Shown here: positions 1,921-58,950 of the stretch, one piece after another | Layout of the letters: each line of letters begins with the position of its first letter | Position numbering within the stretch: position 1 is the stretch's first letter | Assembly: GCA_047967505.1 (NCBI GenBank) | Contig: CM106538.1 | Strand: one strand, 5' to 3' | DNA from: Dipteris shenzhenensis | Lineage: Eukaryota | Length of the DNA: 64,000 nucleotides | Made by a program: the position numbers and the translations under genes | Notes under the pieces: generated by a model | The model's database searches: none | What the model was told of the DNA's origin: nothing | The model's input: the letters and a program-made list of their open reading frames with translations, nothing else

Positions 1921-3965
1921 TGTAACCGGCATTAAGTTCCATTGACCCACCCATCTAAATTCTCTTGTGGCAGGAAGTAGTCGTCCGCCTAGCCAAGGGA
2001 GTGTGGAGGTTAAAGGTCACTGTGTCTTTACCCTGGTTATGTACAATACTCAAACACATATATAAATGAATGAAAAAGAAGATTAGGGTGGTTCTACACC
2101 CACCAAAACTTGTGTGGCTCTCTGTTTCTCTCTCTCCCTCTTCCGTTCTTGCTTCCGTTGAGAGCACTCTCAATTGGTATCAGAGCCCGGGTGATCTAGC
2201 TGAGCGTGCGTGAATGCCTGGAAGCTCAGCAGCTCTGTGAGAGAAAGGAGAAGCTCTGTGGGAAGCTTTGCGGGTGACTTTACTTGCATCTGAGTGTGTA
2301 GAGACCTTGGAGGAACCTTTGGAAAAGTCACTTTGGTTTTGCGAAGTGGTTTTGAGAGCCTGTTAAGTGTTTTCAAAGAAAAAGTCGTTTTTTGAGCTTT
2401 TCCTTGTTCTGTTCGATGACAGAGACTCCGTATTGACTTGTAGAGGCAACTATTGCTTGCTTTTGGCGTCCACTTCACTTCAGGAGCTTGGAAACACCTT
2501 TATTCTTGAATCTGGGATCATTTCATTGGATTTCTGACTCACTGTGTCAGTTCCTACGTTTTTCTTGCTGAGTCTGATTATGCAATGGCGTCCATGTTTT
2601 GAGGCATCTCAGGTTCTATTTTCAAAAGTAGTCATTACCGTGGGACTATGATTTCTTGAGCATACCTTATGCAGATCACTCTGGTTGCAGTTTGAGCAGT
2701 GTGCCCTCATTCGTGGTGTGCATTGGGTTGCAGTGGATGATTTATAGGCCATTTGGATGCATTGCGGTCCTTATTGGATGCGCTGATGGGCCTAAATTGC
2801 CTTGTGGGATGCTATTTTTATGGATGCTTTGCACATGGATGCTATTTTATGCTGAGGGATAGCTTTGACACATTGCAGGTGATGCACTGATAGTGCTATG
2901 CTCTCTTGGATGAGATATTATTAATGCATATGCCAGTGGACGGTGTTTATGCTTGAGTCATTTGGCACTTATTGGCATTTTGGATTGCCATTGCAGTTGG
3001 CATTTTCTTTTGGGCCAGATTTGCTCATATGGATGCATAGTACATGCACATGAGTCAGATGGTTTGAGACATGAGTTTTGGTGATATTTCACTCTATTGT
3101 GGCATACACATTTGGGTGCACCTGGTATTTGGTATGATTCTCTCTTGTAGGCACTAGCATTTGGGATTTTGCTCTATTTGCATTATGGCATCCTCTTCCA
3201 TGTCTGAAAAGGAGTTTTTCAACATTAAAAAGTTTGATGGGACAAACTTTTCTTTGTGGAAAGAACAGATAAGGGATGTGCTTATTCAAAAGAAGCAGAT
3301 TAAACCCTTGGCAGGATTTGAAGCTAAGCCTGCAAATATGTCTGAAGATGATTGGAATGAGTTGGATGTATTATCAAAATCTACTATTAGACTTCATCTT
3401 GCAGAGTTAGTTTATTTCACAGTAGTAAATGAGCAGACTACGGAAGATTTGTGGAAGAAACTGTGTGCCACTTATGAAAAGGAAACTACCTCTAATAAAG
3501 TTTACCTCATGAAGAGGTTGTTTGAGCTGCAGATGAAGGAAGGGGTCTCCATTGCTTCTCACTTGAATGAATTCAATATTATTTTCAGCCAGCTTCATGC
3601 TCAGAAGATGAATTTTGATGCGGAGACTAAGGCAATATTTCTCTTATGTTCATTGCCATCCTCATGGGATACCTTCCGTACAGCTGTCAGTAACTCTGCA
3701 CCTGGTGGAGTACTGAAATTTGATGATGTTGTGGGTAGCTTGTTTGCCGAGGAGATTAGACGAAAGTCTATGGACGGCAACAAGAAGGATGCAGCCTTAA
3801 ATGTGCAAAGGGGCAGATCACAGTTCAGGGGGAAGTCCCAAGAAAGAGGGAAGTCTCGTAGCAAATCTAGGGCATGCAACATTGAGTGTTACCACTGTGG
3901 CAAGAAGGGCCATATGAAAAAGGATTGCTACAAGCTGAAAAGAGAGCAAAAGGATAAGAAAAAAA
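1921..3965 (+). mobile_element. 5' part of a Ty1/Copia LTR retrotransposon: LTR 1921-2172, PBS, leader, gag
   Basis: TG...CA bounded ~250-bp segment followed by tggtatcagagcc (2175-2187, initiator tRNA-Met PBS), then gag; truncated after the zinc knuckle. Confidence 0.85.
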
Positions 3966-6223: not shown

Positions 6224-9124
6224 TTAGAGCTTGTCAGCCATGGGATCAGAGTCCATGAAGTAGCGATTGAGGGGACTGTCTGGCAACATTTCCATGTGAT
6301 CACATACCGAAGAGGAGGCAAGAACCTCGTCCACCTTTGTTGCGGAATCAGGTCTTTGCAGGGATCCTTGTACCTCCATGGTGGGTTCAATTGCGCACGT
6401 TCTCGTTCTTGTTGTTGCCGCTGCTGCTGCTGGTGTGGAGCATTGCGTAGATGACACGATTTGTTGATTCGAAACAACGAGAGATTGCAACAGGTGTTGT
6501 ATTGCTGAAGGTTGTGACTGATCTCTTGATGTGAACATCGCCCAATCTAAGGGGGAAACTGGCAGCTGACCTCTCCATAGAGCAGCTTGTCCGGAGCTGA
6601 AATTCTTTGCATTGCGCGTGCGATCTGCCTCTGCTTGTTCTGTTGCTCTCAATCTCGTCAATGCATCTTCTGAAAATTCGCGAGCTCTCTCAGCGAAACC
6701 GATGTTAATGCTAGCAAGGGATGGTAATTGTGATTGCGTTGGAAGCAGGCCTTGCGAGACTAGATCGAAGGTCTTGGGGATGTTGAAGTAATCACTGATG
6801 CTGCTGGTACAGCTAAAACCTGTGCCTGCATTGCTGTAGCTACCACTAGAAGCTGCCCTTGCATTGTTAGTGTGAAGCTGGTGAAAGTCTGCTTTGCTGT
6901 CGGTAGAGGTGATGGGAGGGCCAAATCTGGGAGTGAAGGCAAAGCTATGGATAGTTGGGGAGGAGGGAGGGAGGAGGGTGAAGGAAGGGGTGGAGGAATT
7001 GGGAAGCGAGAGGGAAAATGGAAGCAAATTCGGCTGGTGCTGGGGAAGCAAATTAGCAAATGGGACATGGAGGGTGTTGGAGGTGGTGGAGATGGGTTGC
7101 TCTGAAAATCCTTGGAGACATTGCATGGAGATTTGAGGCATCAAAGGGTGTTGGAATGCAAAAGGCCATGTCTGATGGTCTAATTGAGAGGATCTGCACC
7201 TGTGGTGGCCTCTATATGTGACATCACACATCGTTGCATCCTCGTCGCACCTCTGCACGTGCTTGATTGCTTGGCATCCCAAATCGGATTTGTGCGTGCA
7301 TCTGTAATAGCTCCTGCATCACACAATTGTTCAAACAATGCATCAGATTGATTACAAGCATCAAACAATTGTTTTCTTGTAATCTTTCGGTTTGGGATCT
7401 CCTTTCAAAGTGATAAGAGAGAAGATCCCTTCCTCCAAACATCTCGTATTTGTTCTAACGATGCATGAATGCATCAAAATGTTTTCTCGCAATCTTAAGA
7501 TTCAATTTGGAGTCTCCTTTTAAATCGATTAGAGAGTAGATCAAAGCATGAAATAATTGTTCTAACAATGCAACCAATTGTTATTTAGATGCATTCCATG
7601 TTTAAACGTCAAACAATTTATGAGATCTATCTGAAATATTTGTTCTAACAATGCATACCAATTGTTCTTTAGATCCACTCCAAGCATCATACAATTGTCC
7701 AAGCGTCGAATGAGTCCTAGTAGCCCAAGCATGGGACAATTTTTCAAACTTTAAACAATGCATCTATCCCAAGCTTGCATCACACAATTGTTCCAACTTG
7801 AGACAATGGATCACTTCTATCCAAAGCGTCTCACAATAGTTAAGCTTCACATAATTCCAAGCGTGAGACAATTGTCCAAACTTCTTTTCCAAAACTTGTT
7901 TCGCATAATGCATCATATCGATTCCACTACACACTTACTACAATGCGTTCAAACAATTTGAGCACAAATATTCTTACATGCTTAAGTTTCCAAGCAATGC
8001 ATTGATTTCATTACACGGCAACAACCACCAAGCATTCACCATATTTCTAACAAATTTTCATGCTAAAGGACTTGGATTGCAAGCAATATAGTACCTCGGA
8101 TATTTGGCACCCAGAATGTCTTTCTGGCCGTACTTTCTCCAAGTGTGGCCATCATCCGGAGGGATTTCCACGCCCTCGTCCAAATTGCTGGCAGGCATCT
8201 TGAGCATCACCTTGGGCAACAATTTCCTGCTAGCAAAGTTCAATAGCAACAGATTCTACCTTAAAATTTGGATCTAAACCCATCACGATGTACAAAATTT
8301 GCAACTGATCTAGATCAACAGAATACACTGCTGATCAACTATTCAACAGGATACACTGCTCAACATTTTGAATTGAATCAGATCAACAGAATACAGTGCT
8401 CAACATTATGAATTGAATCAGATCAACAGAATTCCACAGAATTGATCTAGATCAACACAATACACTACTGCTCCACCCACCTCTTTCTCGGATTTTCTCG
8501 AGCATCCTTGCTTCTGCCGTTGCGTCCGGCAGCCCCGTCGTTCTCGGCTGTCTGATCTCCTGCCTCCTGAACACCCGTCCCAACGTCCTTTTCCAGCTCC
8601 AGACTCGGATTTACTGTTGGAGACCCGTCCGACATCTCGCTCGTCGGACTGTTGTTGCTGTGCAGCGGCGGGCTTCGTATAACCCTCTTCGCCATTGGAG
8701 CTGTAGTCGTTGCCGCCATACCGCGCGGTGACATTGGTGGCGTCTCCCCATTCCGAGTCGTGGACAGAGGGCTCCCCACCGCCGAGAATGGCCTCTTCTG
8801 CGCTCGCGGTGACATAGTGCAGCGATCCACCAGCTGCTGCGATGGCGAGGCCGAGCTACTGGGAGCTGAACCTCTGCTACCGCGGCCGGAAATGAGGAGC
8901 TTAATTGTGTCGTTGAAGGTAGCAATCACCTCTACCGCACCAATCACGAAGCTGGAGCGAAGCTCGAAGCTTTCGGCTTCACAGAGCTTGCCTAGGGGAG
9001 TGGTGTGCAGCTTCTCCTGGAGCTCCTTCACAAGCTTGCATCCTTGGAAGAGCTGCTCTCGCACTCTGTGATCGAATTTCAGCATTTCGTCATCTTGCTG
9101 GATATCTTGACGATTCTGTGCCAT
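6224..9124 (-). CDS. WRKY: Group III WRKY transcription factor; exons 9124-8481, 8226-8095, 7313-6224
   Basis: Exon 2 [21 protein letters not shown]; exon 3 [21 protein letters not shown]...TYRGHHRC (C-X7-C-X23-H-X-C). GT-AG junctions keep frame and the intron after PR is the conserved position. The exon 1 N-terminus has a group III-like [14 protein letters not shown] segment. Confidence 0.93.
8305..8460. repeat. Short tandem repeats in WRKY intron 1
   Basis: Several copies of gatcaacagaatacactgct and gaattgaatca. Confidence 0.75.
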
Positions 9125-9977
9125 CCAATTCTTTATCAACTTGCAGAAGCGCAAAGCAGACGTGATTCTATCGATACGACCTTGCTCTGGGAAACCTGAA
9201 TTCGTAATTCTCTCTGTCTCTCACTCTGTAACAGGACCCGGGAGTTCCAAAGGAGTTGCGTGCTCTCTCAGGCTAATTTCTCGCGCAGAGCAGTGGCTTG
9301 TTGAGGCGAAAGTAAAGTTCCTTCCCTACTTCTGAACTCAATTTGGACTGTGGCTTGCTCTGGACAACCTGAATTCGCAGCCGCCTCCACTCGGTAACAG
9401 GACAGGACGTGAGAATCCTAAAGTTGCATACTCTGTCGCACTAATTTCTCGCGCAACTGAACGTGGGGCAGTGTCATGCTGTGAGGCGAAAGAAAAGTTC
9501 CTGGCTTACTTCGTCCAAGCTCAATGCGGGCCAGGGCAATTGTCCCTTTACCTCGCTCGTTCGGTTACTCCGTGTGAGCTCGTTTGCGGTCCTCTAAGCT
9601 CAATACGGAGCAGGATAGTTCTCTCTCTCTAGTCTTCCTCTCTCGCGGCAATATCGAGCAGGACAATGCCTCTGTCTGTCTGTTTGTCTCTCTCTCTCTC
9701 TCTGTCTCTCTCTGTCTCTCTTTCTAATCTCTTTCGATCTTTGTTACACAGTATTGTTCTACCGATGGGCTTTCAGTAAGAACAATTATCGCCGAGAAGC
9801 AGGCGAGTCGAGGAAGAGGCAAAGGCGAACTTCGAAGATGAAGAGGGCGGGAGACCAGACAGGGGCGCTCACCGACGTGGTACATCCACGTAGGAAAACG
9901 CCCCTGTTCAATAATTAACCTTCAAGATTTTGCGGTCCGACAGCATTCTACTCAGACCGAAGCTTCTTTCTAGACCT

Positions 9978-10072
9978 AGTCAAACTATCCAAACACCTGG
10001 TCAACCTTTACATTTTGACTAAGACTCTTTTCCAAGTTTCAACCTTCTCAAGGCGTTCAAATTTCCTTGACC
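9978..10072. promoter_or_regulatory. W-box cluster upstream of the WRKY gene
   Basis: Four TTGAC(C/T) matches within 95 bp: 9978, 9999 (reverse), 10015, 10067. Confidence 0.6.
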
Positions 10073-10506
10073 ATGCCGTCACCCTCCCTCCATCCCCAGC
10101 TTCCCCTTTGCCCTCCCATACCGTCACGTTCCCTGCTCCATACTACCCCCTCTCCTTTGTCCTCGAGCCTTCACCAACCATGTGCCTTGCCTTCATTTGC
10201 TTTCTCAAGGTCCCTCCATCCTCAAATCATTTCCTTGCTGACTCCCACAATTCCACAATTCGAATTTTGTCCCTTTGAAACTTACAATGGAATCGAAATA
10301 ACATTGTGTTGGAATTCAAAGGGGAACATTTGGTTTATTCACGTCAATACAAAAGCTTTCCAATACTACTTTCTAATGTTGATGAGAACGATAGGATACG
10401 GTCTGTAACAAATTGGTCATATGTTTCACAAAAGGTACGAAATGGTCAAATAATGACTTTTGAATCGGTCTCCTTTGCTACTTACCTCAAGTTGGAATGT
10501 TGAAAT

Positions 10507-43899: not shown

Positions 43900-44510
43900 A
43901 ACTTAAGCAAGGTCTTGAGTCTACAGTTGAGGCCTCACCTCGTCAGTCATAGATAGTATCCATGACATGCAAACAAGGTTTGTTCAAGAACATAGTATCC
44001 TAGACAAAATGTAGTGGATTGGGCACGAGAAGAGTCTTTAATCTATTGCAATCCTTCTTCCAGATTTCAAAAAGGCTTACGATAGGGTGGAGTGGGCCTT
44101 CCTAGAGGATACGATGTAGAGGATGGGCTTTTTGGATAGATGGATTTGAGGGGTCTTAGCCATGTGTGCAGGGAGTGCAAGCTCGATACTCATAGGCGAT
44201 CACCCAGGAGAAGCTTTTTCTCTTTCTAACTCAGTTCATTAGGGTTGCCCCCTTGCCTCCTTCTGCCTCTTTATAGAAGAGGATTCGGGCTACTTTCTGC
44301 ACTCCCAGGCAGTAGGCCTCATGGAGTTGAGGCTTTTGATCCATCAAGAGGAGGAGCTTTTGGATTCAAAGTTTGGAGATCACACAACACTATGTGGAGG
44401 GCACTGAGGAGAGCTTAGAGGGGGTACGATGAGCCCTAGCGACTTACTGTCTGGCCTCAGCCGCTAGGATCAATAGACCAAATCAGTGGGTTTCCTCATG
44501 ATGACTGAGG
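43900..44510 (+). mobile_element. Degenerate LINE RT fragment
   Basis: Manual translation DFKKAYDRVEWAFL and a GCPLA motif. Confidence 0.7.
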
Positions 44511-45419
44511 AGGTCCAAAATGTTAGAAAAGTGAACTCTTACACCGAGGGTATCCCGCAGCGGAGGACTGATAGCTAGCCTAGAATTACATGTGGCAGTG
44601 TTTCACTATGGAATCAATGCTTCATCTAGTGTGTGTACTTCACAACACTCGTGTATGTGCAGACTAGCAAATGAACTATGCCCAGAGATTTAATTTCTCG
44701 TCATTTCTTAGATTAGGCCATGCAAGATCATGAATGTATACATTTGTCATTTATGGCAACATATTTGGGTTGGGATCTCTAATAATATTGTGTATATCAC
44801 TTTTGACTGATAAGATGATGTTCAATCTAGTAAGGATATGTATTTTACAAAAGTAGGTTTGGTTTAGTAGATCAATTCGTATTTGTCCTTTTGATTTTTG
44901 ATTTACTTTCAAATTTTCAGTTAATCATTTATCTATTTAGATGTGTGATCAGTGTTATTTTCATCAATAAAAGGAATAGACAAACATTTTTCTCTCATGT
45001 AAGATGTTTTATCCTCAAAAAATTATCAAACTTGCTTCACCCTGTAGACATCATGGAAGTGTGTGTTATAGCTTTGTATGTGCTAAATGTTCAAGTCTTC
45101 TTTACATTGATTGCTAGTAGGTGTGCAAATCATTTTAGTATCTATGAGCCTATAGTTTGATTGAAGGATAGGATGGAAATTGTATGCCAATACCATGTGC
45201 TTAAGTGTAGGTTAAGTATTGGAATGCTCTAGACCAATTGACGTACTATATCCTTTAGTGATTTTCTTAAGAAAGGGGAGAAATATCTCCAATCATGGTC
45301 TTTTGAAACACCATTTATAAGGCTTGCATATCCTTGTTACATCACAAAGATGCCTCTCTAGAGGACAACTGTAGATTTTCTTGGGTCTTTAATGCATGTT
45401 TTGATTTTTTTTTTTTTTT

Positions 45420-45957
45420 TTTGGGGAAACTTTAGCACTCGTATGCATCCATGCAAATACAATGCTATCTATAGGCTCCCAACATTGAGGATCTTTTGTG
45501 TTCCATAGCCAAAATTTATCTGAACACCTTGATTACACTTCTTCATCTATAGCATGTTGGTGAATGCAAACAGGTGCCCAATATTATATAGGTATCTTTT
45601 TGTAATTCTCTAACATCCTATTTACATCTACATCACTTTGTACAACACCTAGCCATATTGGGTAGATTGCGTTTGATGGTCGAATAAGCACAAAATCACC
45701 AATCTTGACATCCACCATTGGCTTAAATTTATCTTTGGGTCTTTTTTGTGAAGGCCCACAATAGTGGTCATCCATTTTTTCCAACTCTTCGAAGTCATCC
45801 TTGTTATCATTGCAATAGATGTTCCTTCACTATGTGTCCTTGGCAAAAAATCTTTGAACACTCCCTTTTCCAACATATTTTGGAGTTTCTATAGCATCCA
45901 CCTTATTTTTCCAATACTCAATCATGGGTGCTATGTACTTCGTGAGCTTAGCATCTA

Positions 45958-45960
<3 letters not shown>
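45420..45960 (-). pseudogene. Fragmented ORF of probable transposon origin with a W-rich C-terminal domain
   Basis: IGDFVLIRPSNAIYPIWLGVV...YWAP...WLWN..DPQCWEPIDSIVFAW, with stops. Confidence 0.4.
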
Positions 45961-47130
<1,170 letters not shown>

Positions 47131-47500
47131 TTAGGAGCCAACTCTTTATGGAAAACATTTGATGGTGTGTCCCTGTTTATATTTATTTATTTATATTTAT
47201 ACATGTATACATGTGTGTGTGTGTGTGTGTGTGTGTTTATATGTTCTATTTGATTATTATATTTTAAATAAATATATTATTATATTTATTTAATTATTGA
47301 TAACTAATTATTTAAATATACATATTCAATTTTATATGTACTTTAGATATATATTCAATTTTATATCTAAATAACTAAATTGGTTTGCTAATATATATGT
47401 GTGTGTGTGCACGCACGTGCATGCATGTGTGTGCACGTGTGTTATACTTCGTGATGGGGATTTGTAAATTGCATTAGGTAATTGCATCAATGTTTCACCA

Positions 47501-47540
<40 letters not shown>

Positions 47541-47566
47541 TTTTGATTATTTATTTTAAGTAAATC

Positions 47567-47609
<43 letters not shown>

Positions 47610-48075
47610 CACACACACACATTAGGAAAAAAGGAAACTCATTTTGGGGCCTTGTAAGAAATCCACTAGTTTCTTATTTTTCTTTGCTCCAAAATCTACA
47701 AAAATGAACTAGCATTAAATGCTCCTATCATATTCTCTCTTTAAAGTGAGTTTCGTGTCATCTTGACTCATGCCAGCAATAGAGTTTTGTGTCGGAATCC
47801 CATAACTAACGATTAAGAATCTTTGTTTTTCAAAATTGTAAACCTTCGCATGACAAGATAAACATGGACTTATCGCGATAAATATGGACTTATCATTGTT
47901 GACTTATGTAGGCCATAAGATTTCGTGGTCAAAAACTCATAACTAACCTTTAAGAAATTTTATTTTTTTTAATTTTTAAACATCCCCACGAAAGATTAAC
48001 ATGGATTTATCACGGCAAGTCCATTGCTAACACTTTGTTTTATAAAAGTTGATAAGGGTGTGAAGCAACGGGAAA

Positions 48076-50801
48076 ATGTTGCTCAAAAAAATGGCAATGT
48101 GCAACCACACCATTGAAGAACAATCCAGCAAGAAGAGACTTTACCACCTCCACATTGATTTAAAAGAAGAGTATGCACCTGTGCAAAAACGACTGAAGGG
48201 TCCACAAGCAGGTGCAATGCCAAGGGAGAACATAAGGAAAGAAGGCTTACATCATATCGATTTATGGTGTGATGGGAGCATTTACCTAAGATGTCTAATC
48301 AGTAACTTTACTCCTCCATTTTTCAATCTGACAACACTGCTGAAGTTTGTGGGGTGATGGTAATAAGGGCCAATTTGGATATGTCAAAACTCAATCTACG
48401 GCCGTGGAAATGTACAAAGGCTTTTACCAACAACAGAGATGGGAATGAAATTGCAACAGGTAGCAAAAAGCTCTAAATTGAAGGAGTAGCTACAGAAAGA
48501 AATTGAAGAACACATGATGACAAAGAAAATGTTGAGGAAAGCTAGAAGAAAAGCCACACCCTTAGGAGATAGACTTAGAAATAGCAAAATTCGTAACTTT
48601 GCAAATCTAACCTGGCAGTGGAGGATGCATGCGCAAAGTTTAGGAAGCAAGGTAAGTCTTCTTTTGCTTTTGCAATTTTGAATGCAACACAAAGACAATG
48701 ATTACTCTATGATAATAGCAATTGAGCTTGGAAAAACTCTTTTATTTGTGCTTCTTATAGGAAAATTCTTAAGCCTTGTAAAGAAAATGTTGATCCTAAT
48801 GCCCCTCTAATAAAACAAATGAAAGGTTTACTGTCAACTACAATTGCGAAAAGCATGCTAGAGGAGAAAATCTATAAAACAATCAAACACAATGTTGTGC
48901 AATAGTTTGTAGATACAAACAAAGTTGATGTGAGCATAATCCAAGGGGCACTCGATGAGGGCGGAGTGAACAGAAAACATTGCACATCCATTTTCAATGT
49001 AGTATTAATAACCTTGAAAGATTAGAGGATAAAACGGGTGTGCTCTTACCAAAGCCTACGGCAGTGTGGAAGTTAAGAGGCCTACTCAACCAACAAGTAG
49101 ATGATTATATTGAAAATTGTATGCACATTGAATGAGTGTATGAAAGTGACAAGGGAACCACTGTATATAACTCTTTTAACAATGTTTTTGTCGATCTTCA
49201 ACACGTGCAAATGAGAATGGTTGAGTTTTATGATATGGCATTTGAAGAGTGCCAAAGGTTCCTTAAATTTGTTGTGAAATTGTCAAGGAGAAAAAGATTT
49301 AATGAGTGACCATCACTCTAATGAATAGAGCTCTTGATCCCTCGATTACAATAGCAGACTCAAAACACTTCAGTGTGCAATCAGAAAAGCACATTTGCTG
49401 GCTAGGCACATTTGAGGTAAGCACACACTTGAATTGAAAGTGGTTTTTTTATAAGTATTTATTAATGTATGATTCTTTAATTGTATTTTCACTTGGCAGG
49501 TTAAGAAAAAGGACCACAAAACTCTTGATTGGGTATTCCAACACATAGAAATACCATCAATTATTAAAGATCAAGTTCAAGGAGGGTATTTGCATGTTGG
49601 TGGCAAAGGTGATTTCCAGATTGATTGGCATAGGGCAAGTGACCTCAAGACCCTCGAGTGTATGTTCAGCATAAGCAAAGTAGGTAATTCAAAATCTCCA
49701 TGCCTTTACTACAAGGAGCCAGCATATGTCGTGGATTCAAAATGGTGGAGGAAGGCACCTAACAAAGATAAGGTTGATCCCAATTTCAAAGCCGTTCTTG
49801 ATATCCCTTTGTGTAATGTACATATATGCACATTACCTGCTTTATGTCGAATCATCGAGAAGATGGTATTTTTGTATGTTGGTTTTGCCTGGAAGCTTCA
49901 TCCTAAAAAGTGAGGAAGGATGAACTTCAAGCAATCGAGAAAGTATTTTTGGGCATTGGTCTCCATGGAGGAGATGTTCATATCACAACAAATCTAGAAA
50001 AATTAAAAAATGGAACGGAAGTGCCCATCAAGCCATCTATCGGTGGAGTGAAGGTTAGAAGGTTTTAATCACAGCCACAGGGCAAGAGAAAACCAAGCAG
50101 ACAATCACGCTATGTTTCAAGAGTACAGTATGGCATTTGGAGGCACACACACAATGCAATTAAAGATCATGAAGTAGACGAAATTGCACGAACTGTTCAA
50201 ACAGAAGTATAAAGATCCTTAGACAAGCTTTTCATACTTTTTGACAAACAAACTTGGACCAAGAATGATCACCGTGCATTGGAGGAGGAGCTGAAGACTT
50301 TGGAAAGTCAATGAAAGAAGCTTGGACAACTTGCAACATACCACATTACATGGTAATAAAATTTCATTCTTTGCTTTTACTGGCATTTTCCTATGTTACC
50401 TCTTAACAATAGAATGTGACTTCTTGTTTATTGTAAATGCAACATATTATCTACAACCATTTTTCATATTTTGAAAAAAAATATGGATGCCCTACATTTC
50501 AGTCAACTCAGGGGGAATGGAGAAGTCTCATTACATAGTACAAGATGCATTTTTTTGGCATAGACAACATTTTGGAGGAGCACAGAAAGCAAATAGCCTC
50601 AAAGAAGTTTCCAATGGTTGTATGCTACAAAGGTTGCAATGTAAGAAAAAAGTGGCAACATCAAAAGTCACACTAGCATTCAAGATGGCCCAAAAAGAAA
50701 GAAGAAGGCAAAGCTTGGATAACTCAACTGCTGCACAGAGACATGCGGAATGGAGAAAATCAAAGACTTTTATGAACCACAGGTGGATAGATAGAGCTTA
50801 G
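48076..50801 (+). pseudogene. Intron-containing RAG1/Transib-like DDE transposase (decayed)
   Basis: Spliced manual translation in RAG1-core order: LKFVVKL, SVQSEKHICWLGTFE|VKKKDHKTL, ASDLKTL, SKSPCLY, ICTLxALCR, IPHYM|HIIYNH...KYG...STQG-MEKSH. Introns at 48653-48760, 49417-49499 and ~50353-50442. Confidence 0.75.
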
Positions 50802-50978
50802 GAACTTTGTAACAAAATGTACAATGTATAGCTCAATAGAGCAGTGCGGTGACTATATTATGTAAAATTTGCAAATTCAATACATGTACACTTAAGTTCC
50901 TATAGTAAATCCGTGGCTATATGATGCAAGGTTTGAAATTCAAAACAACTACAGTCAAAAGCAAAGATACAATATGAT

Positions 50979-53553
50979 TCAAAATAATTTGCTACACTTT
51001 GCAAGAGCTTGGAAGCTTACTAACAATATAATATCCTGCCCTAGAGCAGATCTTGCCAAGATAATAACCAAAAATATTGTAAGCAGATATTTTTTCCAAA
51101 AGAATGATCCTTTCCTTCTACTGGTTGATTTGATCACCTCTTCCAATCTTATCAAAGTGAAGGTCCCTTTGAATCTTCTTGAATGTCTCATCATCGATGT
51201 CATCGTCTCCCATACATTTCTGAGCTTCCTCAAAGCACGTGGATAGACATTCCTATGAGTTGAAGTTGTCTTCCATGCTGTGGAAAGGGTCACCCTTCTC
51301 AATGATCTCAAAATCCAAATGGCAGGATTGGACAATCAATGCCAACGTGTAATCTTCCCTCAAATCAAATATTGCTTGACTATCATGAAGAAGAATATAA
51401 TCCATATCTCCAATTTGGAAAGTGGGAAGCAATGGCATGGCACGGCCATAGCTTTCAATGTCAAGGTCTTCAATCCTTACTAGCCTATTAAGTGTGTCTG
51501 TCCTTAGTGCCACAAGGTCGAGTGCAGCAGCTTCATCTCTCTCCTTGACAAGGTCTATCACCTTCTCTTCATCCTCCTTCTCTGATACTTCTACCTCTTC
51601 TTAGAGTTCCTCTTGATCCCAGGGCCTCTCATCTACTTCCTCATGCTTTTGCATCTCTAAGCCCTCCTTAAGGTTAACATGATGGTAGTTCATGTACAAT
51701 ACAAACCCCAAACATTCGTCTAAAATTTTGCACTTTCTATTGTGCATGTTGCACTCTGCTTTAACATGCTTTGGCAAAAGCTCATACCTCTTATGAATGG
51801 AAGTCCTGAACTTATTATCTGTCAACAAATCCTTGATGTGGATGTGTGACTTATTTCCAATACAAATCCTACCCTCCCCTGTGAGCTTTTGAAAAATGTT
51901 GCATTGTTCATCAAAAAATTCAATGTGTTGGTCAACCAAATGTGAATAATCTAGCTCCTTGTTGAACATTTCATAGAAAATATGGAAATCCTACTGGGCA
52001 TTGCACTTATGAAGGAAATCAAAAAGCAACTCATCACATGATTTTGTTTGTTCTCAAAGCGATTTGGCTTGTTGGGGGCTTGCTCAACAGGATAAATCTC
52101 TTTGTTAAGCACATTTCTTAATAATTTTGTCAAGTGATATTTTAAAATCTTGAGCAAATTCTAGAGGATCAATCAACAAATTGGGTTTTTATAAAATTAT
52201 ACCTGGAATAGGTTGGTTCATGACCCAAAAATCAGAACTTGTTACCTTGGTCTCCTTCTGGAAGCTCTTATCCTTGTTTGTAAGATCACACAAAGGAAAA
52301 TTATTTCAATGGCATGAAAAACCAAAAAAGGACAGGGACATGACTAAATATGTCCTTGAGACATAAACTAGCACAATGTAATAGTAGAGAGAGTTCTTAT
52401 GATGGCAATAAATGTATCTAGGTCAAACTAATGCAAACATATGCTTGTGAAAGACCATATTCAAGATGTGTGCCCCAGAAAGTGATTTTGACTGTTGGAC
52501 AGTGCTCCAATAGTCAAAATTGCTTTCTTAAGCACATTTCAACATTTCTTTGTATCCAGATTTCATAGAGACCCCACACTTCTTAAGGACAATTAACATT
52601 GAAACACACACATTGAATGAACATACCAAGTCTAGGTTGGTCCTTGACCACATTTGGAATTTGATAGATGATATTGGAAATGTACTCATGTTGGTCTATT
52701 GGTCCTATTACCTACTATGCAAATCTCTATCTTAGGCACACTTGTGCACTAAGATTTGTTTTTGGATATTCTCTGGAGTCTTCTAAGTATGAAGTTTGTT
52801 CCAAGGGTAGTTTGTTTTGAAGTAGGAGCATCAGGTGCTTTTTCATTTGGAATTTTGGTGGTTGTATTCTCTTCAGGCTTCTAAAAGGTAGTTGGAAATT
52901 GAAACACTAGGTGAAAATATGTAGTAATAGGTAGTATGTGATCAAGAAAGTGATTTGGGATGTTCGGCATTCTCCTGAACCTCAGAATGGCTTTCTTAGG
53001 TACATTAATAAATTGTGTTATGAGGGCAGTTTATAGGGGCATCAATTTCTTAATATCTATTTATGTTGGAATCATCTATGATTGTGTTAATCAATGTTTT
53101 GAAATTTGTTTAGATACTGTTGATTTTATACATTGCTGTGTTGGCAATCATATCAATTTAATGGAATGTGAGATAAACAAATTGTGTGGGATAGAATTTC
53201 AGTAATGTGCCTAAGAAAGTGATTTGGCTTATTGGACAACTCCCAAGCCTCCAAATCGCTTTCGTAAGCATCGTTTTGCATATGTTTCTGGTTGCATATT
53301 ATGTGTTGGTTTTCTTCCTCTATAGGGACAATAGGGACTACTTTTGATTTCTGCATTGCTTGTTGTGTTGTCTCTCATATGGGTTGGACATTGGATCAAT
53401 TTGATGGATTGTGAGAGAGAAACAAGTTGTTAGGTAGAGTTTTTCATTAATGTGCTTAAGAAAGTGATTTGGCTTGTTGGACAATTCCCAACCCTTTCTT
53501 AAGCACATTTGTGCATATCCACCTGTTATAGGTTTTGTCTTGGTCAGGGCCAA
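50979..53553 (-). pseudogene. Fragmented gene of unknown function, convergent with the transposase
   Basis: Chain of minus-strand ORFs (53338-53553, 53153-53356, 51951-52157, 51601-51969, 51253-51561) with an acidic tract and repeated NKPNHFL/NKPNRF segments. Confidence 0.45.
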
Positions 53554-53604
53554 TAGGTACTACTTCTTTAATGAAGCTCTTAGTTTGCAGGCTGGAAGAC
53601 TATC

Positions 53605-55800
53605 ATGGCAAGGGCAAACCAGACAACCATAGTGATTGGTAAGTGGCCTCATATTGCTCAAGCTGCCACTCCCCAGTTGCTAGTGCCAGTGTCTGAGGAT
53701 CTCATAAGAGGAAAGGGAAGTCCGTGCATATCCTCAAACAGGCAAAGAAGAGGAGGGTTTCTCAAAAGGTGTCAGTGCTTAGGGGGACAAGGAAGGCACA
53801 AAAGGCCATGGGACATGCAATACCAAAGGCTCCCTTTCAAAGTCTTGTGAGGGAGATCTGTAATGACAATCAATTAGGTTATAGATGGCATAGGTCTACA
53901 TTGTTGTCCCTCCAAGAGGCAGCTGAAGATTGGATGCTAGAATTCTTATGGGATTGCATGATTGTTGCTACACATAGTCATAGGGTCATCTTGAGGGTGA
54001 AGGATGTTGAGACACTTACACTTAAGATATTTTGTTATAGATATGACAAAATCCTTCATCCTTGCAATTGCGTGGACCTCAAAATGAGGGATATTCTATT
54101 TGTGCCACCAGCAAGGAAACCAAAGGATGTTGGTACAACTCTAGTGGAGGTAACACAAAACAAGGATACAAGGGGCAAGGCTGCTTATGAGGAGGCCATG
54201 ATAGAGCAGAGGGATGCTACCAACATGCAATTCATCTAAGAGACTACCCTAAGGGACATTAAAAATAATCAAAGGATAATGCATTTGGGATCAAATATTA
54301 TACTCAAGTTTCAAGATGCCACTTTTGTGAAAGACATAACACTGACCCAAGACTGTTTCAGAGCTTTGATGTCACAAGAAGGATGGGTGACTGATACAAT
54401 TATTTTTTATGTTCTCAAGTAATTGATATGCATGCTTAAGGTGATGAATATGGTTGAGTTTCTTGATTAATTGATGATATGGACTCAGTTCCTTATACAA
54501 TGCACTGAGAACAATATTTTTACCAGCATGTATAGAGGAGGGTTAAAAGAGCCGCAACAACTTGAGGTTTATGTACTTGATCCTTGCATATCTCCCTTAC
54601 TAAGAAATCCAAAGGTTCCTACAATTGATCTTGTCAAGTGGTTCAAACACTGTGACTTCAACTTGATCACTCTCATCCTATTACCTTATAACTCTGAGTA
54701 AGTGAATAATACATTTTACTTCATTTCTTCTATCATTCATTGTTGTAATGTTGACTAATGTATCTGTCTTTTTTTTGCAGCAACCATTGGAGCCTAGTGT
54801 CTATTGACCTTCAACAAAAACAAGCCTTTTGTATGAATTCTCTCTACAAAACACATAAGGACCTTGATTTGTATGTTTCCTTTTGTTAACATATCCCTAT
54901 ATAAATAAAGCTCTACATTGTTACTTCACCATTGCTAACAATAGGATTTTATCTTGTAGAGGCATAAAAAGGTTATTGGATGTCTTGGATCATTTTCCTC
55001 CAAATGTGGACCTGCGTGATATTGTTGAGATTTTTGACTTAAAGGTAAGGACATTTATGGATGTTCAATGATGTTTTTGGCCTCCTCAATTATATAAACC
55101 ATATCCTAAGGTTGTTAAGTTTGTGCACGTGCCACAAGGAGATGATCCCCATTCATGTGGGTGGAGGACAATGATCCATGCCAAGTATTTGTTAGATACT
55201 TACTTTGCAGATCCGCCACCAGACAGGGTAAGTATATAAATCTATATATTCATAATGACTAGACTTACACAAACAAACACCATTGTGAAACAAAATATAA
55301 TCTAATCTTTCATATTATTTTTCTTGATTGCAGGTTTCAGAGGATAGATTTATATCAATCTATGTCAATGGATATAGATCCATGGTCAATGTATCCCAAG
55401 GGAGACACAGAGCGAGATCTAGGGCTAGTGCTTTTGGAAGCAAGGAGACTGCTGTTGTTGTTGAAGGCAAGGAATAGGGGGCTGAGGACAATCCCAAAGT
55501 GGAAGAGGAGATTTCCAGTGAGGAACCACAGTAGCCTGATGAGCAGCATCAGCCTTCACATCAGCCTTATGAGTAGCCTCATCCTTCACATCAGCCTGAT
55601 GAGCAGCTTCATCCTTCATAGCAGCCTGATGAGTAGTCTCATCCTTCACAACAACCTGATGACTAGCTCCTACAGCCTAATGAGCAGCCTAGCCTGATCA
55701 AAAGCCTCCTTCACAGTAGCCTGATGAGCAGCCTCAGCCTCTGATCAATAGCCTCATTCACAACAGCCTGATGAGCAACTTCAGCCTCATCAGTAGCAAC
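53605..55800 (+). pseudogene. Histone H3-like / Ulp1 (C48) protease fusion gene with introns and a Q/P/E-rich tail
   Basis: MARANQT..GK tail; IPKAPFQSLVREIC...RW...LQEAAED...HSHRVIL..KDV histone fold; then GWVTDTII, NHWSLVSID (54782) and VPQGDDPHSCG (55129), separated by GT-AG introns. Confidence 0.8.
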
Positions 55801-56089: not shown

Positions 56090-58950
56090 GGGTACCTTCT
56101 TACAAGGGTTTAAAGATAGCATATGGAAAATCAATAAAATTAAACAATATTACTTGTTTCCGATGCAGAAGATATAAAACCACCAATAAAACTAAGTTCA
56201 CAAAGATATACCTCACATTCTTCTTGGTGTAGTAGTCATTCCAATTCCATCGAACAAATAAGAGAAGAGTTGGGCACATCATGTTGTCCTTGAATTTGGA
56301 AGACTCTACCCTCTTTTTCAAACATAATGGAGTTATTAAGATAACTCCGATGTAAGCTATGCCCAAGACTATATAGCCATTCTCGACCAAGCACTACATC
56401 TGTTCGGTCGAGATGCATGATTTGGAAATCCAACAAGTCTTAATAACCTTGAATATCCACCTCTACACCATGTATCATGGTGTCCCAAACTTTCTTATCA
56501 CTACCTTTTGCCAAAGAGACCACATATTTATAGGCACTTGGACTCTTAAGCAATTTTAATTCCTTAATTAACAAGTAGTTCAAGAAATTATGTGTTGCAC
56601 TATCATCAACCATCACTCTTACTCTTTGCCCCTTAATTTTTAGTAGTATGTGCAAAGTTTGACTGTTAGTGCATATGAACATTTGCACATGATGTTGAAA
56701 ATTTTCCTTAACAACACAATGATTATGCTAAAAGATCTACTGATTTTTTAGCTGAAAATTGCTAGGAAGGTTGTGATGACTAGCTCAAAATGACCCACCA
56801 AAATTATCAATGTACTAAAGAAAATTGAGTGGGACCAAGGCATTCAGCATGCCAAAAATAAAATTATAAAATATACTAACACGTTAAGATTAGTCGCATC
56901 AACTAGTGTTGTAGTTCCCTTGTAGCATCACTCAAATGCAAACTAATATATTCTTCTTTAGCTTGTATTCCTTAGCTTGTATGCAAACTAATATGTTCTT
57001 CAAATGCAAACTAATATGTTCTTCTTTAGCTTGTATTCCTTAGTATTCAATATCAATAATTTTTTCAATCTAAATGAGAGAATTTTTCAATTCAATAGAG
57101 CTAGGATAGAGGCAATAATCATGTTTAATAAACTTTGTGATACTCAAAAGAATTTCTCTAATGGTACAAGTGTGTGATTGCCCTTTATCTGATGAGTTTA
57201 AACCTATGATGCTACACGAAGTCTTTGTGCACTTACACTACATTAAATCTCCTCATTAAATCATGAGGACCAAAGGTGGGCTACCACATTTTTTTTGATA
57301 TATAGCACATGGTGCTATCCTCATGATAGACCTCTACCTTAGTGTACTTTTCAGTATTATCAAGCAGCAACACTTGCACCGCATGTACTTGTCTTTGTGG
57401 AGGTCTATTCGGGGCTTTAGCTCCCACTTGTTTATTTTTAGGGTAGAGTTCCAAGCAGCATGGTCTTTGCCCAAACATTTGAAGCAAATATTTTCTTGCC
57501 TGGCCCTTTCATAATCCTCTTTCTTCAAGAGAGGATAATTTTGTGTTTGAGGTTTCTTAGGTGGTACTTGAGGAACCTCCTTCTCAAAGTGCCCCTTCCT
57601 TTTCAAATTGGGAAATTTGTTGAACTTTGAAACAAAACTTGTTTGCTTTGAAGTTTCAGCTTTGAATTTCCCCGTCGCATTATCATATATTTGGGCAAAC
57701 TTAATGGCTTCCTCAAAGGTTTTAGGAGACTTTTTTTTCACCTGTACCTTATAAGTGTCTTTGAGACCTTTCACAAAACCCCTTATTTTTTGGAATTCAT
57801 CAATTCCCTTCAACTTAAGGACTGCCTCCCTATAGTTCGCTATGTACTGGACTAGAGTGTTTTTACCCATAGTGCAATTGTCCCAAGCCTCCCACACTCT
57901 TTCTAATTCATTTTCCGGTAATAACTCTTTTAGGAAGGCTTGTTTAAACTCAGTCCAATGTCTAGGAATTCTTTCATTTTCCCTAAGGCTCATCCACCAT
58001 TTATAGGCTTTATTTTCAAGGGAAAGACTTGCTTCCACAACTTGATTTTTAGGAGGTGTATTCCTAAGTCAATGGAAGCCTTGCCACTTTTGCAAGAACA
58101 TATTAATCGCATCTATATTATGCTCCTTTTCTTCCCCATTGAAAATTGGCGATTTCAAGTCCTTAAGGATGTTAGAGGTTTCTCTAAGTCGAGAGGTGGA
58201 CCACTCAACTTGATTAGGAGGCATCATTTATTTTTTTGTAATAGTTACCGATTGAGAATTGTCTAACTTAGTTATGGCTTTAGCTAGGGTAATCAATGTA
58301 TCACTGATAACTCCTAGTTGTGGTTGTATATTTTGCATTCAAGTTTCAAGTTTAGTGAAATTTGTATACGAAATTCCATAATCACCGGTATATGTCCTCC
58401 ATTTCCATGTTATCCTCTTGAGTTTCAATTTGTACCTCCCCATGTGTTTCCTCTCTAGTTAAAACTTTTCCTTTCCTAGCCCTTTCCTTGGCCTCTCTAG
58501 CCATATCGTCCCTTTCTGGAGTTGTCATTTTAAAGATGCATTTTTTCCTAAAAATATAAAGCAAAGCGCTTTATGTCATAGAGAAAAATATGATGCCCAC
58601 TTTCTCGGTATTTGTTCGATGGTCTTGAATTCATCTTCGCACTTTCTTCGATCCATGACTTCTCACTTTCTTTTAATTCACAATCTTTTCGATTTCGCTT
58701 CTTCCATTTCCCTCGATCTCAAACGTCAAAATCCCGCTTTCTTCTTTTGATTATGACAAGGTTCAAGAGATTGGAGAAAGGGTTGAAGAGGATCTTAGAA
58801 GCTTGGGAGAAAGAGGGAGGAAAAAAAGGACTCTAAAACCTTTGGAAAGAGAGAAGGAAAAAGCCTTAAGGAGAGAGGGGTATGAAGGAAAAGGTGACAT
58901 GGCTTTTTTCCCAAAGGTTTTTTCAACCTTTGTATGACGTGGCTCTATAC
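56090..58950 (-). mobile_element. Ty3/Gypsy gag-protease remnant
   Basis: ORF 57334-58038 retrotrans-gag (AYKWW...WTEFKQAFLKE..FVKGL, CFKCLGKDH); protease VMVDDSATHNFL and DVVLGREWL. Confidence 0.88.

Follow-up and report, generated by a model that had tools for sequence, protein, structure and literature searches.

A gene family joining an H3-like histone to a Ulp1-type protease, with a decayed copy beside a transposase-like gene in Dipteris shenzhenensis

Transposons carrying Ulp1-type (C48) proteases and transposons carrying histone H3 sequences have both been described. The VANC-Ulp1 (KIU) proteins of the VANDAL group of Mutator-like elements (MULEs) bind short motifs in the non-coding parts of related elements and cause hypomethylation of these (PMC13317346), a proposed route by which VANDAL elements escape silencing. 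ULP fusions in rice involve MULE, En/Spm, plant-mobile and ankyrin domains (PMC12903978), and in Dothideomycete fungi hAT elements captured and amplified plain H3, the copies of P. fijiensis having mostly lost activity through repeat-induced point mutation (RIP) (PMC6710886). In this study, we analysed a stretch of 64,000 nucleotides from Dipteris shenzhenensis (GenBank assembly GCA_047967505.1, contig CM106538.1), hereafter the window, in which an initial annotation made from the sequence alone had noticed an H3-like histone fold fused to a Ulp1/SENP-type protease beside a transposase. We observed that the two parts belong to one spliced gene, here called H3-Ulp1, that the fusion is a family trait and no accident of the window locus, and that the window almost certainly holds a pseudogene of a real family of fused genes. 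Ulp1 in MULEs, the ULP fusions of rice and the capture of H3 in fungi are known, and none of these three sources mentions a histone-Ulp1 fusion; the histone as partner domain appears to be new. The initial annotation knew of no such fusion, and our search of the full-text literature, in which subscription journals are mostly uncovered and supplements unseen, likewise found neither a histone-Ulp1 fusion nor a fern transposon bearing one. Additionally, the word 'histone' occurs zero times in a 2026 review of gene capture (PMC13317346).

The gene model, for which tblastn alignments of relatives served as guides together with splice signals, comprises six exons on the (+) strand at window positions 53605-55477 (Table 1). 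The open reading frame (ORF) at 53697-54236 (+) matches Pfam Histone (PF00125) with an E value of 2.8e-17 and 63.6 bits against a cut-off of 26.4, and all 60 listed matches among solved structures in the PDB are H3 or H3/CENP-A chimeras and fusions, the solved H3 chains being matched at E values of about 1e-12 to 7e-11. The ATG at 53605 opens MARANQTTIVIGKWPHIAQAAT, a worn H3 start lying in a frame other than that of the histone fold. Past the TAA at 54237-54239, the frame runs on to ...WVTDTIIFYVLK and ...LTQDCFRALMSQEGWVTDTIIFYVLK, and exon 1 ends in the splice donor AA/GTAATT (the slash marks the splice site); exon 2 is bounded by the acceptor TTTTTACCAG and the donor GA/GTAAGT and has the phase of the second exon of L001, a metagenome locus described below. 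Exon 3, which encodes NHWSLVSID, reaches 24.7 bits with Pfam Peptidase_C48, above the cut-off of 20.7 (E 2.5e-5), and VPQGDDPHSCGW of exon 5 is located at 55132-55164. All five introns are of the GT..AG type with a pyrimidine-rich tract before each acceptor, and the spliced frame from 54240 to the TAG at 55475 contains 261 open codons. The strings quoted in the initial annotation were found in the sequence and its translations as it had given them and are not chance matches, and its reading of an H3-like N-terminus with a histone fold, of a frame continuing past the stop at 54237 and of C48 signatures is borne out, the last with His, Gln and Cys in place. Its extent to 55400 falls short, as the gene reaches the TAG at 55475-55477 and a decayed tail continues to about 55790.

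That this arrangement recurs was disclosed by a phmmer search of 1.84 billion representative proteins with the exon 1 read-through as query (P0001, with X at the stop), which returned 3299 matches at E<=1e-3, 70 of them at <=1e-10 and 6 at <=1e-30. The best of these matches are not ordinary H3, and their alignments pass beyond the histone fold, some of them to query residue 237-238, which corresponds to the WVTDTII motif. Of 288 proteins collected, 36, one of them that of the window, contained the extension behind the histone fold in a simple motif scan, and at least 35 relatives combine an H3-like part with it. Alignment A1, composed of the window sequence, 15 relatives and an ordinary H3, displays a common plan that begins with M-A-R-T-K-x-T-A-R and a short basic stretch with G-K, followed by helix N, the histone fold with invariant F67, R72, E97, D106, R116 and D123 (H3 numbering), and an extension of about 35 residues with the consensus R-x-R-Y-D-K-L-L-x-P-x4-D-x-K-M-x-D-I-L-x-x-P-P-x-R. 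After the extension come E-V-T-x-H-x-x-T-R, a variable charged linker and the first Ulp1 motif (...D-T-I-x-Y). The H3 tail start is retained in 14 of the 15 relatives with the remainder of the tail replaced, whereas the window retains only the decayed form MARANQTT. In the variable linker, the column of the window's stop at 54237 is read through by 13 of the 15 relatives, and therefore this stop is not a conserved terminator; the two exceptions are P0013, which ends well before the column, and P0004, which ends about nine residues after it on a contig of 945 bp. Eight relatives end exactly at the window's exon-1 donor, where A[AG]/GTAA gives K/R and then a stop, as expected of an ORF caller at that intron.

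Complete fused genes were also obtained. A scan of metagenome contigs with a seven-row family alignment (A4) gave five loci (L001-L005), and in L001 (4553 bp) the exons at 385-1196, 1279-1449, 1538-1627, 1711-1894 and 1971-2750 join into 678 amino acids (aa) with no stop; the introns are GT..AG and have the window's phases, with window exons 4 and 5 forming a single exon there. L001 runs from MARTKQTARR through the histone fold (Pfam Histone, 1.8e-18), the extension, the linker and the Ulp1-like domain, with active-site residues H330, N347 and C395, to a proline-rich tail of 238 aa. Thus histone and protease, which the initial annotation had allowed might prove separate or unlinked elsewhere, are linked in an intact gene. 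In L003 (1429 bp) the H3-like part lies at 210-695, and Peptidase_C48 is matched with 24.7 bits (E 2.3e-5) by an HWSL exon at 1238-1360; L002 and L004 are too short for the protease exons, L004 also having two in-frame stops. From the fern Adiantum nelumboides, the gene predictions P0025 (403 aa; Pfam Histone 2.6e-23 and Peptidase_C48 25.6 bits) and P0163 (503 aa, with an internal deletion; both domains from precomputed Pfam) each carry the two domains in one gene. Altogether 14 different Adiantum family proteins were listed at 26-96% identity to P0025, and we infer that they come from at least 12 different contigs. The homologue search with P0025 was dominated by ordinary H3, with only 8000 of the candidates scored, and of 307 longer candidates for the 180-aa histone ORF none gave a score, which reflects a limit of sensitivity, the fused forms having been found by other routes.

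Two side observations concern these contigs. The fifth locus, L005, on a JGI metagenome contig, stands outside the H3-Ulp1 family; it has two tandem H3-like pieces at 6550-6924 and 9935-10126 (RW, AAHARRITLM), neither with the extension and one broken by a stop and an insert, and these are another diverged H3-like lineage. In L001, a 187-codon ORF at 2808-3368 (+), which starts 60 bases past the H3-Ulp1 stop, has a Pfam match to the FCP1/SCP-type phosphatase domain NIF (E 1.6e-17); no counterpart was found near the window gene, and this ORF may represent either additional cargo or a gene of the host.

The origin of the histone part was examined in a tree, built with a careful search, that compares 53 H3-like folds in 92 aligned columns. 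All 22 H3-like rows of the transposon type fall into a single clade (support 99/96), in which the window is sister to P0003, and three flowering-plant CenH3 proteins form a separate clade elsewhere (100/98). The nearest outside rows to the transposon-type clade are P0069 and P0092 (98/88), H3 variants of about 180 aa with C-terminal extensions of their own, and they might represent the host lineage that gave the transposon its histone. A Trp at the Phe84 position of H3 and LQEAAED in helix 2 are common to the H3-Ulp1 family, CENH3 and other variant H3s. An origin from CENH3, considered for this likeness, received no support from the tree, in which 92 columns leave the deep order unresolved. 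That the gene is a functionless Pack-type transduplicate, in which a captured H3 fragment landed by chance before a captured Ulp1 fragment, has precedents for both halves, namely H3 capture by hAT elements in Dothideomycete fungi (PMC6710886) and Ulp1 capture by MULEs in flowering plants (PMC13317346). Nevertheless, we regard it as extremely improbable, as lineages that share only 30-45% identity have kept reading frames of 252-678 aa open, the histone-fold core is invariant and followed by a conserved extension that is found in no ordinary H3, intron phases are conserved, and the clade is monophyletic and deep.

Table 1. Coordinates of the H3-Ulp1 copy and its neighbourhood (positions are those of the window)
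Feature	Position	Strand	Evidence
Exon 1, H3-like/Ulp1 gene	53605-54418	+	Pfam Histone, translations, alignment A1, tblastn, splice sites
Degenerate H3 tail in exon 1, MARANQTT	from 53605	+	translation
Histone fold in exon 1	53736-54014	+	Pfam Histone
Family-specific extension in exon 1, YRYDKILHP..KMRDILFVPPARKPK	54030-54125	+	alignment A1
Variable linker in exon 1, carries TAA	TAA 54237-54239	+	translation
First Ulp1 motif WVTDTII, end of exon 1		+	translation
Exon 2, N-terminal half of Ulp1-like domain (MYRGGLKEPQQLEVYVLD...LLPYNS)	54527-54697	+	tblastn with P0025, P0163, P0165
Exon 3, catalytic His and Asn at triad-Asp position	54781-54870	+	Pfam Peptidase_C48, pairwise alignment
Exon 4 (GIKRLLDVLDHFPPNVDLRDIVEIFDLK)	54960-55044	+	alignment to P0163, P0020
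Exon 5, Gln and catalytic Cys in VPQGDDPHSCGW	55111-55227	+	tblastn with P0025, P0163, P0165, P0167, P0020; alignment
Exon 6, ends at first TAG 55475-55477	55334-55477	+	alignment to P0163, P0167; translation
Decayed C-terminal repeat tail, (Q/E)PDEQxxPSH units, same frame, 30-bp period	55478-55790	+	Tandem Repeats Finder (TRF), translation
Decayed transposase-like gene, upstream neighbour	48759-50789	+	tblastn; homology to P0284 (696 aa) residues 19-681
Short-motif cluster GTGCTTAAGAAAG, up to 22 nt conserved	52100-53506	both	motif count vs shuffles

The protease part retains most of a C48 active site. In the window, the His is encoded by CAT at 54785-54787 (NHWSL), the Gln by CAA at 55135-55137 and the Cys by TGT at 55156-55158, and the position of the triad Asp is taken by Asn (AAT, 54836-54838, in CMNSL). 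The same Asn occurs in all six lineages compared (the window, the P0025 group, P0163/P0165 within it, P0167, L001 and L003), in the motifs LANSG of P0025, P0163 and P0165, LANFV of P0167, LMNSI of L001 and FVNSL of L003. When P0165 is aligned to SENP8 with HMMER (E 1e-4), this Asn falls on the Asp of HYDSH, which we take to be the triad residue. Judged from the alignments, the Asn is a family trait and not a sign of decay, because it is kept across lineages as little as about 30% identical, and the protease activity could be lost. An AlphaFold2 (AF2) model of P0025, made with 31 family rows, has a mean predicted local distance difference test score (pLDDT) of 61, with 58-81 in the histone part, 81-89 in a long linker helix and 31-58 in the protease half. 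A Foldseek search with this model placed SENP2, SENP1 and Ulp1 first (1tgz, SENP2, with E 1.3e-6 and a target template modelling (TM) score of 0.51), and every one of its 34 matches at E<=1e-3 is a C48-type protease; further down stand H3.3 in the H3.3-H4-DAXX complex 4h9s (E 3.4e-3, 44% identity) and poxvirus core proteases (E 2e-3 to 8e-3).

These observations bear on a different account of the protein, in which the C48 domain is a dead pseudo-protease that only binds SUMO or a ubiquitin-like modifier, and the H3-like part is a decoy or adaptor for the readers, writers or chaperones of H3. The substitution in every copy examined fits a pseudo-protease, and the kept tail start, with the rest of the tail replaced, fits a decoy. 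On the other hand, His, Gln and Cys are kept wherever the exons are included (P0025, P0163, P0165, P0167 and L001), which would be unexpected if catalysis had long been lost, and Cys-His-Asn triads work in papain-type enzymes, so the Asn need not abolish activity. We consider a pseudo-protease unlikely.

The window copy itself is a pseudogene, as seen in its decayed tail start, a frame change in exon 1 between 53668 and 53714, the TGA at 53694-53696, the TAA at 54237 and the TAGs of the repeat tail. The single premature stop of the initial annotation is thus real as regards the TAA, and is not the only lesion. The repeat tail forms two tandem arrays at 55533-55662 and 55672-55788 (TRF), and beyond the TAG at 55475-55477 it has five further TAGs; at least four of the six TAGs occupy the position of a CAG in sister repeat units. 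The proline-rich tail of the intact L001 protein occupies the corresponding place. With stops spread over 55475-55660, this replacement is a C-to-T change in CHG context, and in a silenced plant transposon the deamination of methylated cytosines is expected to give such a CAG to TAG pattern.

The DNA of the window is plant-like and transposon-rich, with a G+C content of 41%, and its other contents include copia and gypsy gag sequences, reverse-transcriptase fragments and one WRKY ORF. A Ty3/gypsy gag at 56443-58068 (-) (Retrotrans_gag E 1.1e-12, Ty3_capsid 9.1e-9), accompanied by an aspartic protease fragment, starts on the opposite strand about 650 bp past the repeat tail, and it likely sets the boundary of the DNA element on that side. 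In the Adiantum prediction P0161 (817 aa), the H3-Ulp1 gene as far as its HWSL exon is joined with a gypsy-type Asp_protease_2 (E 2e-6), in a layout much like that of the window; a retrotransposon insertion bridged by the gene prediction probably produced this chimera. The WRKY ORF, of 364 codons at 6227-7318 (-), begins with a match to the WRKY DNA-binding domain at E 1.2e-10, and may be either a WRKY gene of the host or a WRKY/GCM1-type finger associated with a transposase.

Upstream of the H3-Ulp1 gene, at a distance of 2.8 kb, lies a transposase-like gene with at least three frame changes and at least five in-frame stops, whose relatives P0280-P0285 (262-696 aa) gave six matches at E values of 2.9e-68 to 3.2e-39. 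Two Adiantum models, P0029 and P0164, keep the window's gene order and strand, their N-terminal piece aligning to window 49040-49443 and their C-terminal piece to 53790-54125; a transposase-like neighbour, as first noticed in the window, is therefore present upstream here and in these two models. The ESM Atlas model of P0284 has a predicted TM score (pTM) of 0.63, and its structural look-alikes in that atlas include RAG1 clusters (TM 0.48-0.58, of which one qualifies for the name RAG1_ZnH2) and Transposase_21/CACTA clusters (TM 0.55-0.57), while RAG1_RNase_H clusters are its feature look-alikes (0.92-0.96). As a lead only, these models suggest a transposase-like gene of the RAG1/Transib-CACTA kind. 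No match to Pfam Transposase_21 or RAG1-core was found in 44001-53602 or in the relatives of the upstream gene, and no MULE, SWIM or DBD_Tnp_Mut match in the six-frame translation of 44001-53602, in the window ORFs of at least 85 aa or in those relatives. The six-frame Pfam scan of 44001-53602 gave only a sub-threshold match to Atrophin-1, taken as low-complexity noise, and the profile of the transposase-like family obtained no match at E<=10 among PDB sequences.

Between the two genes, the short motif GTGCTTAAGAAAG is clustered and ends 99 bp before the ATG of the H3-Ulp1 gene. With up to two mismatches allowed, 9 of its 16 matches in the window lie within 52100-53506 (1.4 kb), shuffles give 2.26 for the whole window with none of 100 reaching 16, and the 22-mer form has four matches against 0 expected. 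The cluster could be a promoter array, a set of binding sites for element proteins or a subterminal repeat region, and short motifs on both strands recall the subterminal repeats of CACTA/Transib-type transposons. L001 does not contain the 13-mer motif of the window. No convincing transposon ends, whether terminal inverted repeats (TIRs) with target site duplications (TSDs) or CACTA or Transib termini, were found in the window. Separately, direct repeats of about 300 bp, 77-81% identical, lie at 45938-47130; they include short palindromes of the AAAGTTTTGGCCACAATGCCAAAAC type, flank (TG)n/(GA)n microsatellites, sit 1.6 kb upstream of the transposase-like gene and may be the subterminal region of an element.

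From these data, we consider the H3-Ulp1 gene very probably the cargo of a transposon. It might instead be a host gene family, possibly a domesticated one, consisting of a fern H3 variant that carries a protease tail, and its adjacency to a transposase would then be a coincidence in a transposon-rich genome. That no transposon ends were defined is consistent with a host gene, as is L001, where an intact gene has no transposase within the contig of about 4.5 kb and a NIF phosphatase ORF downstream. Contrary to this, the 14 Adiantum paralogues are many and diverged, broken copies occur in the window, in L004 with its two stops and in P0163 with its internal deletion, and two Adiantum models agree with the window in having the transposase-like neighbour, with order and strand unchanged, so that a host gene appears improbable. 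The preferred reading is transposon cargo with an accessory role, because the H3-C48 unit is conserved over a deep divergence, is multi-copy with some copies dead, and lies beside a transposase-like gene.

As to function, the pairing with H4 was predicted for residues 40-165 of P0006 and residues 192-275 of P0040 as H4, with three controls. The complex scored 0.82 against 0.00 for the best of the three controls, although H3-H4 is a solved textbook pair and the predictor may have reproduced it from what it had learned; among solved complexes 51 of 78 attain that mark, among mismatched pairs 2 of 108. Contacts agree by at least 86% across three runs, with a partner pLDDT of at least 70. The model shows that the predicted H4-facing surface still resembles that of H3, and the result is read as likeness only, because H3-H4 is such a textbook pair; the H3-like/H4 dimer proposed with the first reading of the locus has been modelled to this extent. 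Docking of the H3-Ulp1 protein on chromatin through H4 has, in our estimate, somewhat better than an even chance.

The protein encoded by intact copies consists of the first nine or so residues of the H3 tail (ARTKQTAR), a complete H3-type fold, the 35-residue extension, a long helical linker, the C48 domain and a low-complexity tail. Its histone fold would pair with H4 and thereby place the protein on chromatin, or on H3-H4 chaperones or the H3-H4 supply, where the C48 domain would remove SUMO from the factors that silence the transposon, or would bind SUMO or a related modifier on them. SUMO-dependent steps in the formation of heterochromatin are established, and because of these and the likeness to VANC-Ulp1 (KIU) proteins, anti-silencing by deSUMOylation is seen as the most likely purpose, an analogy we put forward tentatively and hold to be doubtful. 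A bolder form, in which a transposon-encoded H3 variant is built into or docked on nucleosomes, possibly at the element's own motif-marked copies, and strips off SUMO-dependent silencing factors, is unlikely; if true, this would make it an anti-silencing enzyme tethered by its histone, as well as the first functional core-histone variant encoded by a transposon. The interpretation attached to the initial annotation is in this sense partly supported, as the fusion and the transposase-like neighbour hold, and the deSUMOylase, the entry into nucleosomes and the anti-silencing role are putative.

The same H4 model would also suit a protein that serves transposition, with the histone fold docking the machinery on nucleosomes or H3-H4 chaperones for the choice of target or for replication-coupled insertion, and the protease processing element proteins. 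Structural proteins are processing substrates of C48-clan proteases in adenoviruses, poxviruses and Polinton-type elements, and the poxvirus core proteases of the Foldseek list are of this kind; however, no conserved cleavage site of the Gly-Gly type was noticed in the variable linker, and we find a role in transposition quite improbable.

Taken together, the window sequence at 53605-55790 is, by a modest preference, a dead copy of a chromatin-directed accessory gene of a DNA transposon. Several observations weigh against this. As regards the protein, the protease half of the P0025 model is of low confidence (pLDDT 31-58), the Asn stands at the triad-Asp position in every lineage compared, and the window copy is dead and hence silent on activity. 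As regards the element, no Pfam domain was found in the upstream gene or in its relatives P0280-P0285, and the AF2 model of P0284, made with six sequences, is unusable at a pLDDT of 36. No terminal inverted repeats spanning both genes occur among the 25 longest of 74 pairs, so that co-mobility of the two genes is putative; moreover, the GTGCTTAAGAAAG cluster could itself mark where an element ends, and the two genes would then belong to separate ones. In L001 there is no transposase within 4.5 kb, and the named host among the relatives is one fern species only.

Compared with the systems described so far, the H3-Ulp1 family shares features with each of them and coincides with none. With variant H3 and CENH3 it has in common the histone fold, the MARTK start, the Trp at Phe84 and LQEAAED (plant CenH3 rows P0080, P0096 and P0119), and it differs in its separate clade (99/96), in having no RPGT motif before helix N, and in the 35-residue extension and the protease domain. 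It resembles the Ulp1/SENP proteases (MEROPS C48) in the Pfam match, in the fold match to SENP2, SENP1 and Ulp1 and in His, Gln and Cys, and departs from them in the Asn for Asp, in a weak similarity (E 1e-4 to SENP8) and in the histone as N-terminal partner; in its His-Asn-Cys set, the family offers a naturally occurring variant of the C48 active site. The two-gene layout with a large DDE-type transposase recalls CACTA/En-Spm and Transib/RAG1, whose RAG1 and Transposase_21 members are look-alikes of P0284, whereas the window element has no Pfam match to Transposase_21 or RAG1 and no CACTA or Transib termini were found in the window.

Like the hAT-H3 sequences of fungi, H3-Ulp1 is an H3-derived sequence in what appears to be a DNA transposon, but the fungal ones are plain transduplicates with no protease fusion (PMC6710886), whereas H3-Ulp1 has its own clade, an extension and a spliced C48 domain. 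Capture of H3 had been known only as dead cargo in fungi, and no function had emerged for the Ulp1 domains that transposons carry, although these were described twenty years ago; the family adds a histone variant that is carried by a mobile element and not by the host, and its fusion would tie the Ulp1 cargo physically to chromatin, which gives a testable idea of how elements might fight silencing. The closest likeness in design is to KIU/Kaonashi of VANDAL, which also join a transposon-borne targeting module to a Ulp1/C48 domain and go with short repeated motifs in the non-coding DNA of the element (PMC13317346). In contrast to KIU, the H3-Ulp1 proteins have an H3-type histone instead of VANC, a neighbour with no MULE match in Pfam, an Asn for the triad Asp, and named hosts that are ferns and not flowering plants.

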